Positions 1,069 through 45,744 of a stretch of DNA of 64,000 bases are shown one piece after another. Under the pieces are notes generated by a model. It was not told the origin of the DNA and did no database searches. It saw only the letters and a list, made by a program, of their open reading frames with translations. Source of the stretch: Nitrospirota bacterium (GTDB lineage: Bacteria > Nitrospirota > Nitrospiria > 2-01-FULL-66-17); assembly GCA_049325295.1 (NCBI GenBank), contig JBMOMD010000043.1, positions 11,578 through 75,577 of the forward strand, read 5' to 3'. The translations under genes were made by a program, and so were the position numbers. Positions within the stretch are counted from its first letter, which is position 1, and every line of letters begins with the position of its first letter.

Positions 1069-1864
1069 CGTGGGCCGCGCCCCCGCGTCGGTAGCGGCCG
1101 TTCCGTCGGGCGACACGCTGTCGGCGGTGGGACTGGAAAAAACCTTTCGGCGCCGCCGCGTGGTCAAGGGCGTATCCGTCACGATCAGGCCGGGGGAGGT
1201 CGTGGGGCTGTTGGGACCGAACGGCGCGGGCAAAACCACGGTCTTCAACATGATCGTGGGGCTCATCACGCCCGATCGGGGCGACATCGTGTTGAACGGC
1301 CGCTCGATCACCGCGTTGCCCATGCACCAGCGCGCGCGTCTTGGGTTGAGTTACCTGCCGCAGGAAGCCTCGGTGTTCCGCAAACTCACCGTGGCCGAGA
1401 ATATCCTGGCGATCCTGGAAACGCTGCCGATGCGGCGGGAAGAGCAGCGGGCGCGGTTGGAAGAACTGCTCGAAGAGCTGGGGGTGGCGCACCTGGCCGA
1501 GCAAAAGGGGTATACGCTGTCGGGCGGCGAGCGGCGTCGGGTCGAGATCGCCCGGGCGTTGGTTTTGTCGCCGCGGTTCGTGCTGTTGGACGAGCCGTTC
1601 GCCGGGATCGATCCCTTGGCGGTCGCCGACGTGCAAAAGGTCGTGGCGCACTTGCGCGACCGCGGCATCGGCGTGTTGATCACGGATCACAACGTGCGCG
1701 AAACGCTGGAAATCACCCGGCGGGCGTATATTATTAACAGCGGCGAGATTCTCCAGGAGGGCACGCCCGTGGAAATCGCGGAAAGCCCCCGGGTTCGCTC
1801 GCTGTATCTGGGCGAGCATTTCGCCTGGCAACGATCCTCAGCCGGCCAGGAGGCCAATCGGTGA
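1058..1864 (+). CDS. lptB: LPS export ABC transporter ATP-binding protein LptB
   Basis: Walker [10 protein letters not shown] and ABC signature [15 protein letters not shown]. Stop overlaps the rpoN GTG start (GTGA). Confidence 0.9.
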
Positions 1865-3327
1865 GACCGCGTTTGGAGCTGCGGCTCCAACAAAAGCTGG
1901 TCATGACGCCGCAGTTGCAGCAGGCGATCCGCCTGTTGCAGCTTTCCCGATTGGAATTGAGTCAGACCGTCTCGCACGAGCTGATGGAAAATCCGGTGCT
2001 GGAGGACGAGCTGTCGCAGGAAGGGCCCGAGGAGGAGGCCCCGAGCGGGGACGAGTCGCCCGCCGTGAAGACCGAGGCCGACGCCGAGGCGTCCGCGCCG
2101 GAGGCCAAGGAAAGCGCCGAGCTCGATCCGCAGGAGTTCAACTGGGACAGCTATTTCGACCAGGATGACTTCGGCCTGTCCGGAGACGGCGACTACGCCA
2201 GGGCGTCGTCCGAGGACATGCCGTCGTTCGAACAGACGCTCAGCAAGGCCGTGTCGCTGGAAGAGCACTTGTTGTGGCAATTGCGCCTGTCGAGCGTGCC
2301 GGAGGAGGACCGGCGGGTGGCGGAAGCGATCATCGGGAACGTGGACGACGACGGGTACTTGCGGGTCACGCTCGATGAGATCGCGCACAGCCTGAACTGC
2401 CCGGCGGCGACCGTGGAGCGGGCGCTCAAGTTGGTGCAAGGTTTCGACCCGCTCGGCGTGGCCGCGCGCGACCTCCGGGAGTGTTTGTTGATTCAGACTC
2501 GTCAGCTCGGGTTGCACGGCTCGCTCGTGGAATCGATCATCACCCACCACTTGCCGGACCTGGAAAAGAAGCGGTTCGCCGCGATCGCCAAGGCGTTGGG
2601 GGCGACGGCGGAAGAGGTGTTTCACGCCGCCAAGGTGATCGAACACCTGGAACCGAAACCGGGGCGGCCGTTCGCCGTGTCCGACAACGTCTACATCACG
2701 CCGGACGTGTTCGTGGTCAAGATCGAGGGCAAATACGCGGTCCTGCTCAACGACGACGGCATGCCGAAATTGCGGATCAACCAGTATTACCGTCGTCTGC
2801 TCAAGAACAAGACGCCGGGCGTGGACACCACCAAGACGTATCTCGAAGACAAATTGCGGTCCGCGTTGTGGCTGATCCGCAGCATCGAGCAGCGCAACCG
2901 CACGATCGTGCGCGTGGCCGAGAGCATCGTGAAGTTCCAGTACGAGTTCATGGAACAGGGCATCAACTATCTCAAGCCGTTGATCCTCAAGCAGGTCGCG
3001 GAGGACATCGGGATGCACGAGTCCACCATCAGCCGCGTGACCACGAATAAGTACATGTATACGCCGCAGGGGATCTTCGAGCTAAAGTTTTTCTTTAATA
3101 GCGGAATCGCCCGCACCCAGGGCGGCGGCGAGGACTTGTCCTCGGTCACGGTGCGCGAGCGCATCCGGCTGTTGGTGGCGAACGAAGATCCGCGACGCCC
3201 CATGACCGACCACGAGTTGGTGGAACGCTTGTCGGCCGAGCAAATCGCCATTGCCCGGCGGACCGTGGCCAAGTACCGCGGGTGGCTGCGCATACCGCCC
3301 GCGAACAAACGCAAACGCGTATTCTAA
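1861..3327 (+). CDS. rpoN: RNA polymerase sigma-54 factor RpoN
   Basis: Full-length sigma-54 with the C-terminal RpoN box (ARRTVAKYR). Conserved position after lptB. Confidence 0.92.
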
Positions 3328-3516
3328 GGAGCCTGTCCATGAATGGCCATCTGCGGCGTTGTCAGTCGGTCTTGCGTGCTCACGGTTTTCGTAGGGGCGT
3401 ATTGCAATACGCCCCTACAGGCGCGCAAGACCTCCTTCCGCCTTGCGACCCACCTTTAAGAAATGAGGTGGCGGAAGTCCCCGAAGGGGGCATCTGGCCA
3501 TCCCTGAACAGGCTCC
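3328..3516 (+). repeat. Structured inverted-repeat element, copy 1 (189 bp). Carries an extra internal insert with the 28-bp perfect palindrome GTAGGGGCGTATTGCAATACGCCCCTAC.
   Basis: Starts 1 nt after the rpoN stop. Terminal arms GGAGCCTGTCCATGAATGGCCATCTGC and GCATCTGGCCATCCCTGAACAGGCTCC are inverted. Same family as the copies at 6205, 38042 and 45346. Confidence 0.7.
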
Positions 3517-3620
3517 GGTATCACAATACTCGGACACATTATATAAATTAAGATGCCCGGAAGGGATTTCCGGGTGGTTGACGCGAGAGTTTGATAACGG
3601 AAAAAGGAGAGGACGGCGCC

Positions 3621-4136
3621 ATGAAGACGACGGTCACAGGGCGGCACATTGAGATCACCCCGGCGCTGCGCGCCCACGTGGAAGAACGCGTTGAGCATCT
3701 GACGCGGTTTTCCGGAGACGTGGCGGACGCCACGGTCGTGCTCTCGGTCGAGAAGTACCGCCATCAGGCCGAAGTGTCGTTGAACGTCAACGGCGTGTTG
3801 ATCCAGGCCAAGGAAGAAACGTCCGAAATGTACGCGTCGATCGACGAGGCCGTGGCCAAGATCGAGCGCCAACTGAAAAAATACAAGGATCGTCAACACA
3901 CCCGTCGTCAGCGTCCCGCGGCGATCATCGGCGAGACGGAACCCGTCGAGTCCGCGCCGGAACCGCTGGAGCGCGAGCGGCCGAAACTTCGGTCCATGAC
4001 GCCGGAGCAGGCGTCCGCGGCGTTGGACGGTGGGGAGACGCCGGTGCTCGTATTTCGTCACGCGGGCACCAAGGAGACCAACGTGGTGTATCGACGGGCC
4101 GACGGTTCCGTGGCATGGATCGACCCCGCGCCGTAG
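3621..4136 (+). CDS. hpf: Ribosome hibernation promoting factor (long HPF / sigma-54 modulation protein)
   Basis: MKTTVTGRHIEITPALR... is a typical HPF/RaiA N-terminus. RBS AGGAGAGG precedes the ATG at 3621. The longer ORF-track start at 3591 is rejected. Confidence 0.85.
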   Translation: MKTTVTGRHIEITPALRAHVEERVEHLTRFSGDVADATVVLSVEKYRHQAEVSLNVNGVLIQAKEETSEMYASIDEAVAKIERQLKKYKDRQHTRRQRPAAIIGETEPVESAPEPLERERPKLRSMTPEQASAALDGGETPVLVFRHAGTKETNVVYRRADGSVAWIDPAP

Positions 4137-5055: not shown

Positions 5056-5676
5056 ATGGCGTCATATACCGTGGCGATCACGGGGGCGAGCGGGGCGGTG
5101 TACGGCGTGACCCTGCTCGATCGTCTGGCCCAGGCCGGGCACGACGTCGCATTGGTGGTCTCCCCGGACGGCGTGACCGTGATCAAGGAAGAGACCGGGA
5201 TCGACTGGAGCGGCGACGTGTCCCGGGTGCGCCGCGCCATCGACCGGCGTTACCACGGGCGGGTGACGTGGTGGGAGCCGGGGAACTTCTACGCGCCGAT
5301 CGCGAGCGGCTCGCACCTCGGCGACGGCATGATCATCGCGCCCTGCTCCATGAAAACCGCGGCCGCGGTGGCGCACGGGTTGTCCGCGTCGTTGATCGAA
5401 CGGGCCGCGGACGTGACCTTGAAGGAACGGCGCCCGCTGATCGTGGTGCCGCGCGAGACCCCGCTGTCCTCGATTCATCTGGAGAATCTGCTAACCTTAT
5501 CGCGGGCGGGCGCGCACGTGGTCGCGGCGATGCCCGCGTTTTATCACCGCCCCAAGTCCATCGACGACGTGGTGGCGTTCGTGGTCGGGCGGGTGCTCGA
5601 CCACCTCGGAATCGCCCACGATCTGGTGCCGCGCTGGGGCGCGGACCGCACGCAACGGAGGACACGTGAGCGCTGA
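5056..5676 (+). CDS. ubiX: Flavin prenyltransferase UbiX
   Basis: MASYTVAITGASG...IIAPCSMKT...VVPRE matches UbiX/Pad1 motifs. Start placed by arithmetic from the stop. The 548-aa ORF 4030..5676 in the track is an artefactual upstream extension. Confidence 0.85.
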   Translation: MASYTVAITGASGAVYGVTLLDRLAQAGHDVALVVSPDGVTVIKEETGIDWSGDVSRVRRAIDRRYHGRVTWWEPGNFYAPIASGSHLGDGMIIAPCSMKTAAAVAHGLSASLIERAADVTLKERRPLIVVPRETPLSSIHLENLLTLSRAGAHVVAAMPAFYHRPKSIDDVVAFVVGRVLDHLGIAHDLVPRWGADRTQRRTRER

Positions 5677-6202
5677 ACCCGCAAGACCATTGATCCCGGA
5701 GGATCACCCCGATCCCGATGCCGATACCGCGATCGACCCCGAGGTCGAGGCCGCGGTCGCGGCGGAGGCGGCCGGGGACGAAAAGCTGACGCTCGTTCAG
5801 CGGGTCACGAAGATGAACGTGGCCCAGAAGGTCAAATTCGCGTTTCGGGCCGACAAGGAAGGCCGGACCTTGCTGCTCAAGGAATCCAGCCGGCTGGTGG
5901 TGATGGCGGTGCTCAACTCGCCCAAGATCACGGAGCAGGAAATCGAGACGCTGGCCAAATCACGCAACGTGTCGGAGGAAATATTGCGCGCGATCGCGAG
6001 ACGGCGCGATTGGATGTCGAAGTATTCGATCAAGCAAGGTCTCGCGAGCAACCCCAAGACCCCGGTGTCCATCTCGATGAGTCTGCTCCCGACGCTCACC
6101 GCGCGGGACCTGAGCTTTCTCGCCAAGGACAAGGGCGTTCCCGAAGCTATTCGGAATAATGCGGTGCGGCTCGCCAAACAACGCAGCGAACGCGGCGGCT
6201 AG
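5666..6202 (+). CDS. Hypothetical helical protein
   Basis: Overlaps the ubiX 3' end by 11 nt in the same direction (co-transcribed). No recognisable family. Chosen over the antisense ORF 5797..6177 on coding direction. Confidence 0.45.
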   Translation: MSAEPARPLIPEDHPDPDADTAIDPEVEAAVAAEAAGDEKLTLVQRVTKMNVAQKVKFAFRADKEGRTLLLKESSRLVVMAVLNSPKITEQEIETLAKSRNVSEEILRAIARRRDWMSKYSIKQGLASNPKTPVSISMSLLPTLTARDLSFLAKDKGVPEAIRNNAVRLAKQRSERGG

Positions 6203-6204
6203 TT

Positions 6205-6326
6205 CAGGCTGCTGAAAAAGTCCATCTGCTGCGTTGCCGCTGCGCATCCGCTGCTCACGTACGACCCAGTACGCTGCGCTGCGGTGCTCGCGGCTGCCTT
6301 GCATCTGGAGCTTTTTGAGCAGCCTG
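6205..6326 (+). repeat. Structured inverted-repeat element, copy 2 (122 bp)
   Basis: Starts 3 nt after the TAG stop of the 5666..6202 gene. Arms CAGGCTGCTGAAAAAGTCCATCTGC and GCATCTGGAGCTTTTTGAGCAGCCTG. Core shared with copies 3 and 4. Confidence 0.7.
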
Positions 6327-6373: not shown

Positions 6374-7492
6374 TTACTCCGCGTCGGGTTCCGTTTCGAG
6401 GCGGCAACGCTCACGAATGCTGGACCATTCCTCGGGTAAATCGAAGGCTGTTCTTGGCGGGGCGGCGTGGGCGGAGAGGGCGCGGAGGCGGGTGACGCGT
6501 TCGCCGGTGGCCGGGTGCGTGGAGAGGTACGCGAGCATGCCGGGCATGTCGTGGCCCTCCCGTTCGAGCAGTGCGAAGAACGCGATCATGCCGGCCGGGT
6601 CGATCCCGGCGTCCAGGATCATCCGCATGCCCTCGTCGTCGGCCTCGGTTTCGTGCGCCCGGCTGTAGCGCAACGTGCCGAGGTTGGCCGCGGCGTTCAT
6701 GCCGAACGCGGCGGCGCCGCTCGCGTCGCCGGTGAGCGCGGCGATCACCAGCCCGGTGGAGGCTTGTTGCAGGAGGGCGCGCGTGGAGTGACGCCGGATG
6801 ACGTGCTGCGCTTCATGGGCGAGCACGCCCGCCAGTTCTTCCGGCGTCTCGGTGCGCCGCAACAAGCCCCGAAAGACCACGATCGGGCCGCCCGGCGCCG
6901 CGAACGCGTTGAGTTCGGGAACGTCCAGTACGATCAGGTGAAACGGGTACTCCGCGCCGGAGGATCCCAGCGTGGCGGCGAAGATCTCGTCGATCGCGGT
7001 TTGCAGGGCCGGGTCGTCGCACCGTTCGTCCACGTCGGCAAAATGTTCCAGGACCGCGTCGCCCAACCGCACGTCCCATGACAGGGGAACGTACGGAGTC
7101 ACCGCGCCCACGAGCGCGGGCACGCCGTAATTGATCAGCCCCACGCTCGCGACGATCGCGGCCACCGCGGCCGCCGCGGTCCACGCCATGCGCGATTTGC
7201 GCCGCGACGGGTCGTACGCGGCGGCCCCGAGCCGGGGCGCCTGCCGATAGAGCGCGTCCAACAACGCCCGGTCGTCGATGAGCAGGGCCTCGGCGATGGG
7301 CGCGCCGCGTTCGAAGCGCGCCTGCTCGCCCGCGAAACGCCCCTGCGTGCGCCGGATCTCGTCATACGGCCAGGTCAGGGTGTCGTTTTGCTCGGTGACG
7401 AGCTCGATCCGGTCGGGCAACAGGCGGACGTGCACGCGCCGCCGCTCGGCCGTGCGGCCGTCAAGGTATACGCCGGTCCCGTTGTCCGACAT
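6374..7492 (-). CDS. M48 family zinc metallopeptidase with N-terminal cytoplasmic domain and one TM segment
   Basis: HEAQHVIRRH (HExxH) plus a downstream glutamate-containing helix typical of M48/HtpX-like peptidases. Start MSDNGTG placed at 7492 by frame arithmetic. The upstream part of the 572-aa ORF is rejected. Confidence 0.72.
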   Translation of the reverse strand: MSDNGTGVYLDGRTAERRRVHVRLLPDRIELVTEQNDTLTWPYDEIRRTQGRFAGEQARFERGAPIAEALLIDDRALLDALYRQAPRLGAAAYDPSRRKSRMAWTAAAAVAAIVASVGLINYGVPALVGAVTPYVPLSWDVRLGDAVLEHFADVDERCDDPALQTAIDEIFAATLGSSGAEYPFHLIVLDVPELNAFAAPGGPIVVFRGLLRRTETPEELAGVLAHEAQHVIRRHSTRALLQQASTGLVIAALTGDASGAAAFGMNAAANLGTLRYSRAHETEADDEGMRMILDAGIDPAGMIAFFALLEREGHDMPGMLAYLSTHPATGERVTRLRALSAHAAPPRTAFDLPEEWSSIRERCRLETEPDAE

Positions 7493-29266: not shown

Positions 29267-29343
29267 GCCCCCGTAGCTCAGTTGGATAGAGCAGCGGTTT
29301 CCTAAACCGCGTGTCGGCCGTTCAATTCGGCCCGGGGGCACCA
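29267..29343 (+). tRNA. tRNA-Arg (anticodon CCT), CCA encoded
   Basis: Cloverleaf: acceptor GCCCCCG/CGGGGGC, D-arm GCTC...GAGC, anticodon stem GCGGT/ACCGC with loop TTCCTAA, T-arm GGCCG-TTCAATT-CGGCC. 77 nt. Confidence 0.88.
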
Positions 29344-37393: not shown

Positions 37394-38041
<648 letters not shown>

Positions 38042-38166
38042 GAGCCCGTTCGGGAAAGGGCCATCTGCGGCGTTGGCGCTGCGCTTCCGCTCCTCACGTA
38101 CGCACTCCGTACGCTCCGGTGCGGTTCTCGCGCCGCCTTGCATCTGGACCTTTCCTGAACGGGCTC
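38042..38166 (+). repeat. Structured inverted-repeat element, copy 3 (125 bp), located between pyrR and pyrB
   Basis: Starts 1 nt after the pyrR TGA. Arms GAGCCCGTTCGGGAAAGGGCCATCTGC and GCATCTGGACCTTTCCTGAACGGGCTC. Confidence 0.7.
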
Positions 38167-38192
38167 CGTCGTATGGTCAGGTGGAAAGGCTC

Positions 38193-39143
38193 ATGAACCT
38201 CAGGCGCAAGGATTTGATCGCGATCAGGGACTTGGACGTGGAGGAATTGCGCCTGCTGCTGGAGACCGCGGACTCGTTCAAGGAGGTGGCCGGGCGCGAG
38301 ATCAAGAAGGTGCCCACGCTGCGCGGACGCACCGTGGTGAACCTGTTTTTCGAGCCCAGCACGCGCACCCGCTCCTCGTTCGAACTGGCGGGCAAGCGCT
38401 TGTCCGCGGACGTGATCAACATCTCGCCCTCGTCGAGCAGCGTGGTCAAGGGTGAAACCTTGTTGGACACCGCGAAGAATCTGGAAGCCATGGGCACGGA
38501 CGTGATCGTGGTGCGGCACGGCGAGTCCGGCGCGGCCGCCTTGTTGGCGCGGCACCTGCGCTGTTCCGTGATCAACGCCGGAGACGGGGCGCACGAACAC
38601 CCCACGCAGGCGCTGCTGGACGCCTCGACCATTCTGGAGCGCAAGGGACGGATCGAGGGCTTGACCGTGACCATCGTGGGTGACGTGCGGCACAGCCGGG
38701 TGGCGCGCTCGAACCTCTGGGCCCTGACCAAACTGGGCGCGCGCGTTCGACTGGCCGGGCCGCCCACCATGGTGCCGGCGGAGTTGAGGGATTTCGGAGC
38801 GGAGATCCATCATTCGCTCGATTCGGCGTTGGAGGGCGCGGACGTGGTGATGGCGTTGCGATTGCAGTTGGAGCGCCAAGGCGCGGGGTTTTTTCCGTCG
38901 CTGCGCGAGTACAGCCGGTTGTGGGGCATCACGCGGGACCGGTTGCAGCGCGCCAAGCCCGACGCATTGGTGATGCACCCCGGCCCGGTGAACCGTGGCG
39001 TAGAACTCGCGCCCGACGTGGCGGACGGATTGTCCTCGGTGATTCTGGGGCAAGTCGCCAACGGGATCGCGGTGCGGATGGCGGCCTTGTATCTGTTGAC
39101 CGGGGGTAAATCGGACTCGGTCGCCGTGGCGGCCAACCAATGA
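38193..39143 (+). CDS. pyrB: Aspartate carbamoyltransferase catalytic subunit
   Basis: STRTR and HPxQ motifs. Start [11 protein letters not shown] placed at 38193. The upstream extension in the track is rejected because it runs through the repeat. Confidence 0.9.
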
Positions 39144-44865: not shown

Positions 44866-45342
44866 ATGGCGAAAATTCCGATGACCCCCCGCGGGTACCA
44901 GAAGCTCAAGGACGAATTGGATCGACTCAAACGCGTGGAGCGCCCGAAGAACATCCAGGATATCGCGGAAGCCAGGGCGCACGGCGACCTGAGCGAGAAC
45001 GCGGAGTATGCGGCAGCCAAAGAACGCCAGTCCTTTATCGAGGGACGAATGCGGGAAATCGAGACGCAGATCGCGGACGCCGAGGTGATCGACAATACCA
45101 ACATGTCCGCGGAGAAAGTGGTGTTCGGCGCCACCGTGGTCATGGAAGACACGGAGTCCGGCGACAAGAAACAAGTCACGATCGTGGGGCAACACGAGAT
45201 CGACCTGAAAGACGGACGCATCTCGGCCCACTCGCCGGTCGGCAAGGCGCTCATCGGGCACCGCGTGGGTGATCTCGTCACGATCGTCGCGCCCGCCAAG
45301 ACGGCCGAATATCAGGTGCTTGAAATCCGGTTCGATCCCTAA
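44866..45342 (+). CDS. greA: Transcription elongation factor GreA
   Basis: GreA N-terminal coiled coil (ARAHGDLSENAEY) and FKBP-like C-terminus. Confidence 0.9.
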   Translation: MAKIPMTPRGYQKLKDELDRLKRVERPKNIQDIAEARAHGDLSENAEYAAAKERQSFIEGRMREIETQIADAEVIDNTNMSAEKVVFGATVVMEDTESGDKKQVTIVGQHEIDLKDGRISAHSPVGKALIGHRVGDLVTIVAPAKTAEYQVLEIRFDP

Positions 45343-45345
45343 CGA

Positions 45346-45469
45346 GGAGCCTGTCCATGAGCGGCCATCTGCAGCGTTGTCGCTGCGCTTCCGGTCCTCA
45401 CGTACGACCCAGTACGCTCCGGTCCGGTGCTCGCTCCGCCTTGCATCTGACCGCTCCTGAACAGGCTCC
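45346..45469 (+). repeat. Structured inverted-repeat element, copy 4 (124 bp)
   Basis: Starts 4 nt after the greA TAA. Arms GGAGCCTGTCCATGAGCGGCCATCTGC and GCATCTGACCGCTCCTGAACAGGCTCC. Confidence 0.7.
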
Positions 45470-45744
45470 ACACTGGGTTACTCCTCTCGGCTCCTAGAGC
45501 GTGGATTGGTCTCGGTTCCGTCTCGGGTTGCACCTCGCGCTGGGCTCGCGGCGCTTCGGCGTGAACGGCCGTCTGCGCGAGCCGTTCGATTCGCTCATGA
45601 TCAGACCCTTGTTCGGTTTTGGATGGAGCCTGCTCTTGCGGCCGTGGGCGTGGCCCGCGGCGTGGCGCGTCATTCGTTGGCGGATGGACACCGCGGGCTG
45701 GACGTGAGGTCCCGAATCCGGATGGCCGAGCCGTCGTCACGCCC

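Follow-up and report, generated by a model that had tools for sequence, protein, structure and literature searches.

Introduction

Miniature inverted-repeat transposable elements of bacteria (MITEs) measure less than 200 bp, carry terminal inverted repeats, are flanked by target duplications and can form long mismatched stem-loops (PMC2229807). The described families closest in mode of working to the element reported here are ERIC/IRU and Correia/NEMIS, which measure 100–155 bp, have terminal repeats and target duplications, and form hairpins in mRNA. We found this element in a 64-kb stretch of a Nitrospirota genome (contig JBMOMD010000043.1; hereafter the window), where four copies follow the stop codons of rpoN, a hypothetical gene, pyrR and greA. 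A preliminary description of the same DNA had offered two readings, a MITE- or REP-like element that prefers targets near stop codons and a structured RNA of the 3′ untranslated region (UTR). Comparison of empty and filled sites in close relatives bears out the first: the element is mobile DNA, a MITE that duplicates 4 bp of its target and prefers CTAG. We consider it likely that it represents an undescribed family of non-autonomous DNA transposons, about 150 bp long and built around a structured core.

The element resembles ERIC/IRU, which are imperfect palindromes of 127 bp, in its size, its long mismatched hairpin, its intergenic location near genes, its probable co-transcription with them and its orientation-dependent behavior; orientation-dependent effects on mRNA are known for ERIC (PMC2229807). 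However, we see no evident sequence relation between the two, ERIC is limited to enterobacteria and their relatives whereas our family extends to at least seven phyla, and ERIC has TA at its ends where the element has a 4-bp duplication of CTAG or ATGA. Neither the strand asymmetry nor the third, internal copy of the terminal repeat that we report below has been described for ERIC. With the Correia/NEMIS elements of Neisseria it shares the terminal inverted repeats, the target duplication and the mRNA hairpin, and the short and long forms of Correia, which differ by an internal block of about 50 bp, invite comparison with a 43-nt module of the element (PMC2229807). Nevertheless, Correia elements duplicate TA, have terminal repeats of 24–26 bp, an IHF site and promoters, none of which we saw in the element, and they are confined to a single genus. 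Membership in ERIC or Correia is therefore not supported, as duplication, taxa and sequence all differ.

Other kinds of element were also considered. REP and BIME sequences act as barriers to mRNA decay and, like the element, lie at gene 3′ ends and between cistrons. REPs are 20–40 bp long, have a GTAG head and are linked to RAYT, whereas the element is 125–150 bp long, with terminal repeats and a target duplication, and a REP-like palindrome occurs only as an insert nested in one copy. Such REP/RAYT elements and the palindromes derived from IS200/IS605 have neither terminal inverted repeats nor a target duplication, carry short subterminal hairpins and are linked to a Y1 (HUH) transposase. 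We ruled out an origin from either because the terminal repeats and the 4-bp duplication are present and there is no recurrent neighbor gene. Integron attC sites carry R″ and R′ boxes (RYYYAAC ... GTTRRRY) and form cassette arrays beside an integrase gene. This identity was also discarded, given the ends of the element (GAGCCYGTCC / GGACRGGCTC), the lack of a 3′ GTTRRRY and its housekeeping neighbors (rpoN, hpf, pyrR, pyrB, greA and pyrD).

Empty and filled sites

The pyrR/pyrB junction shows the insertion most directly. In two relatives whose PyrR proteins are 94% (L118) and 95% (L119) identical to that of the window, the site is empty and reads GCGCC-ATGA-ACCTC, the two genes overlapping by ATGA. 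In the window and in L117, L120 and L121 the same site is filled and reads GCGCC-ATGA-[GAGCCCGTYC ... GGAWAGGCTC]-ATGA-ACCTC, with a unit of 151 bp that is flanked by a 4-bp target-site duplication, ATGA. Since L119 and L120 encode an identical PyrR, and the element is absent from one and present in the other, its gain or loss at this site is recent. The duplication rebuilds both the stop codon of pyrR and the start codon of pyrB, whose Pfam domain OTCace_N begins just 3′ of the right ATGA, and the Shine-Dalgarno-like GGAAAGG of pyrB (38183–38189) is built from the right terminal repeat of the element. Presence and absence also differ between close relatives at greA: the copy that follows this gene in the window is missing from the same site in L108, L112 and L041, and L041 has an independent copy, after a small open reading frame (ORF) 210 nt downstream of the greA site, that the window lacks. 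Generic traits of MITEs that are found here include small size (less than about 300 bp) and no conserved coding capacity, terminal repeats, target duplication, and many dispersed, polymorphic copies.

The flanks of other copies define the preferred target. Typical Nitrospirota copies (58 analyzed) read CTAG-GAGCCTGTCC ... GGACAGGCTC-CTAG; the left flank ends in TA in 34 of the 58 (in CTA, followed by the G of the element, in 20), and the right flank begins with TAG in 16 of the 31 that have a recognizable tail, while TA is expected at about 3% of positions. The copy in L087 has CTAT on both sides, and all seven readable right flanks of Myxococcaceae copies are CTAG, beside the terminal repeats CAGGCTGCTGAAAAA / TTTTTCAGCAGCCTG. 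IS5 elements likewise produce a 4-bp duplication and share the preference for CTAG, with a target consensus of C(A/T)A(G/A) (PMC11677980). The mobilizing transposase is therefore likely IS5-like (4-bp duplication, CWAR target). Unlike IS5-group elements, ours has no transposase gene, no IS5-family element with matching ends was identified around the copies, and the ATGA target at pyrR/pyrB falls outside the IS5 consensus.

The TA flanks had also suggested a MITE of the IS630/Tc1-mariner type, as IS630-family elements insert at TA and duplicate it (PMC2170065). Such an element, inserting at CTAG and duplicating TA alone, would explain the typical flanks, C-TA-GGAGCC...GGCTCC-TA-G, as well as the 4-bp model does, and CTAG is the target used by IS870 (PMC13630536). 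However, the exact empty site at pyrR/pyrB has no TA, ATGA stands on both sides in all four filled genomes, and under a TA model the ends of the inserted copy would be A...A, which are not complementary. The empty site rules out duplication of TA alone, and we regard an IS630-type origin as highly improbable.

Copies in the window

A covariance model (R1) built from 83 relatives found exactly four copies in the window, with E-values from 1e-33 to 2e-9, and no others (Table 1). All are on the + strand, and each abuts the stop codon of a + strand gene with a gap of 0–3 nt; the identities of the neighboring genes were confirmed by Pfam. The number, starts and common orientation of the copies agree with the preliminary description, but the ends that it gave for copies 1, 3 and 4 do not, as these copies run about 26 nt further 3′, into a tail that holds a third copy of the arm and thus the true right terminal repeat.

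Table 1. Copies of the element in the window, their nested modules and target-site duplications
Feature	Position	Strand	Context
Copy 1 (composite, long form)	3329..3542	+	Between rpoN (1861-3327) and hpf (3591-4136)
Nested insert in copy 1 apical loop	3385..3421		Delimited by alignment with other copies
43-nt extra module GACCCACC...GGAAGTCCCCGAAGGGG in copy 1	3447..3489		Between GCCTTGC and GCATCTGG
Copy 2	6205..6326	+	Between hypothetical gene (5666-6202) and convergent M48 peptidase gene
Left target-site duplication ATGA of copy 3	38038..38041	+	Holds pyrR stop TGA
Copy 3 (complete 151-bp element)	38042..38192	+	Occupies entire pyrR-pyrB spacer; pyrR at 37466-38041
Right target-site duplication ATGA of copy 3	38193..38196	+	Holds pyrB start ATG
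Copy 4	45347..45493	+	Between greA (44866-45342) and small conserved ORF upstream of pyrD

In length the unit comes to about 150 bp in this genome (147–151 bp, or about 215 bp with nested inserts), and the lengths of Nitrospirota copies cluster at 149–154 bp. Its first part is a rod-like hairpin of about 125 nt, in which a conserved core of about 85 nt lies between the left terminal repeat and an internal inverted copy of that repeat; about 14 nt of spacer then lead to the right terminal repeat. The terminal inverted repeat of Nitrospirota copies, GAGCCYGTCC ... GGACRGGCTC, is 10–11 bp long; copy 2 carries instead the type found in Myxococcaceae. The blocks that are invariant in the four copies are CCATCTGCNGCGTTG, 17 nt, CTCACG and, further on, GCCTTGC...CATCTG. 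The arms are complementary inside each copy and unlike between copies, and their inner parts (ATGGCC/GGCCAT, AGCGG/CCGCT, GGAAAGG/CCTTTCC and AAAAAG/CTTTTT) proved to be as first described.

Copy 1 is the weakest match to R1 (3323–3520, 43.6 bits, E 2e-9). Its hairpin (3328–3516), whose left end is abutted by the TAA of rpoN (3325–3327), is followed by a degenerate tail to about 3542, CGGACACATTAT, which is homologous to the family tail CGGACACACTCC, and it folds with −104 kcal/mol on the + strand and −108.5 kcal/mol on the − strand. Its length is due to the two extra modules nested in it. The insert in the apical loop contains a perfect, REP-like palindrome headed by GTAG, GTAGGGGCGTATTGCAATACGCCCCTAC (3391–3418), and similar inserts, GTAGGGGCG...CGCCCCTAC, occupy the same loop in two other Nitrospirota metagenome-assembled genomes (MAGs; L035 and L059), suggesting that hairpin loops are the target of a second small mobile palindrome. 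The 43-nt module defines a long-form subfamily: it is found at the same position, ending in the invariant GGAAGTCCCCGAAGGGG, in L011, L019, L045, L080, L083, L085 and L095.

Copy 2 (105.5 bits, E 9e-26) has an arm type of its own within the window, CAGGCTGCTGAAAAAG / CTTTTTGAGCAGCCTG, which recurs, with CTAG on both sides, in Myxococcaceae copies. The stop codon of the hypothetical gene (TAG, 6200–6202) is itself part of a CTAG (6199–6202), and the hairpin starts at 6205. Copy 3 (113.7 bits) has the terminal repeats GAGCCCGTTC...GGAAAGGCTC and directly follows the TGA of pyrR (38039–38041). Copy 4, the best match to the model (135.7 bits, E 1e-33), comes after the TAA of greA (45340–45342), begins at 45346/45347 and is flanked by CGAG (45343–45346) and CTAG (45494–45497).

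A protein-coding reading of the element, prompted by an AGGAG-N7-ATG in the 5′ arm, was ruled out. The ORFs that start from the internal ATG vary from 10 to 133 codons, their frame differs by copy, there are stops in all three frames near the 3′ end, and a peptide search with the element ORF matched only hypothetical ORFs of 41–79 aa. The element is non-coding.

Smaller variants were also seen elsewhere in the family. A 29-nt block, GGGAAGCAnCATTCGTCnGTCACGCTAGA, is present inside two copies at different positions (L068, about 1740–1770 on the + strand; L107, about 3330–3360) and may be a still smaller insertion module. Mini-copies that retain no more than both arms and the 5′ box, as in GGCGCCCGTCCATGAACGG-CCATCTGCGGCGTTG-CCATTCCTGAACGGGCT, are internal deletion derivatives (L082, about 700–790, and L094, about 7410–7490, both on the + strand).

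Distribution of the family

We scanned species-representative genomes for an exact 20-nt pattern and obtained at least 107 loci, most of them in five Nitrospirota MAGs, with up to about 25 among the loci listed in one MAG. The remaining loci belong to Acidobacteriota, Chloroflexota, Dormibacterota, Myxococcota, Desulfobacterota (including the cultured Desulfospira joergensenii), a Rickettsiales MAG and Pseudorhodoferax. Moreover, BLAST together with R1 detected diverged homologs in the cultured Alphaproteobacteria Ensifer adhaerens, Agrobacterium vitis, Sphingobium, Shinella and Phyllobacterium, where they sit in replicons listed as plasmids, of up to 2.8 Mb. In total R1 identified 128 copies in 100 sources, and the core of about 85 nt, with its conserved mismatches and bulges, is common to at least seven phyla (Nitrospirota, Acidobacteriota, Chloroflexota, Dormibacterota, Myxococcota, Desulfobacterota and Proteobacteria). 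Viral and phage collections are practically free of the element; we found one IMG/VR match there and no phage match.

In the Myxococcaceae MAG F1F2.bin.303, contig ends are no more than a few bases away from near-identical copies (L013, L015, L017, L022, L047 and L066). Assembly of this MAG is evidently interrupted by the repeat, which was probably active there recently.

The element family appears to be undescribed, in agreement with the preliminary description, which could place it in no known family. At the gathering threshold Rfam contains no family that matches the element in the window, where its sole match is a tRNA gene (29267–29340, 63.8 bits); the best match below threshold, mir-1781, scores 21.5 against a cutoff of 68 bits and is a generic hairpin match. 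For the rhizobial homologs Rfam returned nothing at E <= 1. Literature searches with sequence strings retrieved only unrelated primers, and keyword searches for MITEs in the carrier taxa gave nothing relevant. As BLAST of the Ensifer copy matched Sphingobium, Shinella, Agrobacterium vitis and others, but no replicon of S. meliloti, membership in the RIME or Sm-repeats of Sinorhizobium seems unlikely as judged from sequence.

Fold and conservation of the core

All four window copies form much more stable folds than their shuffled sequences do (z = −5.6 to −9.1). In the alignment of 128 copies, standard pairs fill 91.9% of the pair cells, compared with 72.4% after shuffling and 26–42% when the partners are slid, and 34 of the 41 pairs have changed on both sides, so the compensatory changes first noticed in the four window copies are real. 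From its base, the fold begins with an outer stem that is variable and roughly 20 bp long. Next come an invariant helix (CCA/UGG..UGC/GCA), which a 2x2 loop breaks, then a 3x1 loop and the pairs GCG/CGC; beyond a 3-nt bulge, an inner stem that varies and covaries is separated from the apical helix by a small internal loop. The apical helix, CGUAC/GUACG, covaries as well, with GGCC, GACG or CACA in Chloroflexota, for example. The mismatches and bulges of the core are conserved across phyla; a protein that binds duplex DNA would hardly account for this, which argues for a function of the folded single strand. Inspection of the core by eye for a K-turn placed the bulge on the wrong side of the tandem G.A, and we do not claim this motif.

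Such conservation would be expected of an RNA that acts in cis from the 3′ UTR of the upstream gene or from between cistrons, for instance on the stability or processing of the mRNA; host-level selection would keep it, and transposition would be merely its route of spread. This explanation overlaps with that of a MITE, as neither excludes the other, and we see it as possible but rather unlikely. It gains support from the orthologous copies at pyrR/pyrB of the window and L121, which differ by compensatory double substitutions, although at any one locus such changes might also be imitated by gene conversion among copies. A second orthologous copy, in Chloroflexota, has been retained inside an operon in three species, with a truncated copy in a fourth. 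This copy covers the final codons and the stop codon of a cytochrome-b-like gene and lies 12–17 nt before the next cistron. Its core is invariant in 65 of 83 columns (78%), compared with 21 of 40 adjacent third codon positions (52%) and 9 of 26 positions of the downstream spacer. This suggests purifying selection at the cytochrome-b site, with the caveats that gene conversion may contribute and that the loci were found through the 20-nt exact pattern, which biases the comparison; without the 20 columns that the pattern imposes, 45 of 63 are invariant.

Strand asymmetry

We call E+ the orientation read on the + strand of the window (sense) and E− its reverse complement (antisense). For three of the four window copies, the − strand gives the more stable hairpin. 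Consistent with this, E− is the better-folding strand in 78 of 83 copies, with means of −76.1 and −65.5 kcal/mol, respectively (RNA parameters, independent of the alignment), and DNA parameters point in the same direction. The difference is located in the outer stem, which is better on E− in 111 of 122 copies (60 arm types versus 7); in the inner variable stem neither strand is favored (61 versus 56). Moreover, 395 wobble cells are valid only on E− (283 without one pair that is near-universally G.U) and 83 only on E+.

These results count against a cis-acting RNA in the transcript of the host gene, as the sense strand is the poorer folder, and do not bear out the selected hairpin of the co-transcribed strand (terminator, stability element or small-RNA precursor) that the preliminary description had put forward. 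They would fit a function of the antisense strand, either as an RNA-OUT-like regulator of the parent transposon or as single-stranded DNA for mobilization. On that strand the invariant internal loops are rich in purines, with a tandem G.A in CCAGAUGC/GCAGAUGG, a bulge CAA and a loop AAG. Moreover, a G.U pair forms the base of the apical helix in 112 of the 119 copies scored, and the 43-nt module of the long form makes a CCCC-UUCG-GGGG tetraloop hairpin. In addition, the expected mutation bias, C to T on an exposed sense strand, would give the opposite asymmetry. Nevertheless, we think an antisense function improbable. No promoter-like site for antisense transcription was found in the two window copies scanned (1 and 4), and most copies are inside co-directional operons, where antisense RNA would need transcription from outside. 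The positive GC skew of the + strand places the antisense sequence on the leading-strand template, which is not the strand exposed in replication, and terminal inverted repeats with a target duplication speak against single-strand transposition of the HUH or IS200 type.

Position and orientation relative to genes

In the relatives, genes were located with a crude caller based on GC3 that we checked against the window. Of 92 copies, 48 have a hairpin that begins between −15 and +10 nt relative to the stop codon of an ORF running in the same direction. Where the flanking genes are in tandem, E+ is co-directional with them in 38 cases and opposed in 6 (p ~1e-6), a bias shared by Nitrospirota (27:5) and the other phyla (11:1). 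The positional and orientation preferences seen in the four window copies thus hold across the family, and both would be expected of a cis-acting RNA. A terminator is not indicated: a scan of copies 1 and 4 gave no terminator-like site within the element, these copies lack the GC-rich hairpin with U-tract of an intrinsic terminator, and the sequence 3′ of the hairpin in the window copies is AACACCCC or GTCGTA, with no U-tract. A promoter scan of the same two copies found none inside, except for a weak promoter-like match that overlaps the left end of copy 1.

The favored orientation places the weaker-folding strand in the mRNA. The six copies in the minority orientation keep the same strand asymmetry, which is therefore a property of the family and not a local adaptation. 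We see three ways in which this conflict might be resolved. Selection may act on an antisense RNA or single-stranded DNA form of the master element. The family may instead have been selected for a weakened hairpin on the sense strand, since a G-to-A change on that strand gives A.C there and G.U on the other. Finally, copies may be lost preferentially when the stronger-folding strand is on the lagging-strand template, which would fit the positive GC skew of the + strand of the window.

Interpretation

The MITE explanation, which we favor, would work as follows. A transposase supplied in trans would insert the element and duplicate a 4-bp target, usually CTAG. Insertions inside genes would be purged, leaving copies that sit exactly on stop codons, and little harm would follow as the duplication regenerates the stop codon and, at pyrR/pyrB, also the start codon. 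The adjacency to stop codons is then explained because CTAG contains TAG, ATGA contains TGA and insertions inside ORFs are lost. Once inserted, the element would be read through as part of the host mRNA, in which, by analogy with ERIC, Correia and REP, it could act as a barrier to 3′ exonucleases or as a processing site.

Several observations weigh against this explanation. The exact empty/filled support for the 4-bp duplication comes from one comparison, together with the CTAG/CTAG and CTAT/CTAT flanks, and the copies of Chloroflexota, Desulfobacterota and Alphaproteobacteria show no clear duplication. In about 0.9 Mb examined around the copies we found no autonomous element with matching terminal repeats and no arm pairs at the spacing of an insertion sequence, and the only recurrent neighbor genes were paralogous ABC ATPases, response regulators and the orthologous cytochrome b genes. 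One candidate autonomous copy, in L036, was ruled out as a truncated copy beside mutL. Furthermore, a simple MITE does not predict a core common to at least seven phyla whose copies are not alike in outer arms and terminal repeats, nor a core that changes more slowly than neighboring synonymous sites in Chloroflexota, nor the orientation bias in combination with the asymmetry in favor of the antisense strand. The deep conservation of the core and the antisense-favored outer stem are left unexplained by it.

The core might instead be an undescribed structured module, present across much of the bacterial domain, whose conserved tandem G.A, AAG loop, CAA bulge and apical helix closed by G.U would work as a folded single strand on the antisense side, as RNA or as single-stranded DNA bound by a conserved factor. 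Such a module would have been captured by different terminal-repeat systems, or would drive them, and would be under purifying selection where resident, rather than being mere filler of a MITE. We offer this as a speculation that is probably wrong.

If the MITE explanation is correct, the element illustrates how a transposon can colonize compact, GC-rich genomes almost harmlessly, its 4-bp duplication of CTAG or ATGA rebuilding stop codons or stop/start overlaps, and the ribosome-binding site of pyrB would now be supplied by a terminal repeat of the element. In practical terms, the element breaks MAG assemblies, as the several Myxococcaceae copies at contig ends illustrate, and produces spurious small ORFs in annotation. 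Its deeper interest lies in the constrained core common to at least seven phyla, and in the fact that gene-relative orientation and best-folding strand point in opposite ways; either could lead to a new recognition motif in RNA or single-stranded DNA, or to a general rule on the palindromes that genomes tolerate.

Additional observations

At the Chloroflexota orthologous site, in L030 (3400–3440, − strand), a tandem duplication where the gene meets the element takes in the final codons of the gene, its stop codon and the beginning of the arm (CCCGCTATGAG).

The site after the greA stop codon may be a general landing place for small elements. Two metagenome contigs, L109 (1978–2250) and L110 (1610–1930), carry an unrelated insertion of about 270–310 bp right after this codon, which gave no match to R1. 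The small ORF between greA and pyrD, of about 68 codons and rich in W and R (VDWSRFRLGLHLALGSRRFGVNGR...), is conserved in several Nitrospirota genomes. For its product as called in L108 no Pfam hit is recorded. The ORF is shorter than the 80-aa cutoff of the ORF listing and is located at about 45501–45707 in the window, at 1988–2194 in L108 and at about 290–500 on the − strand in L041.

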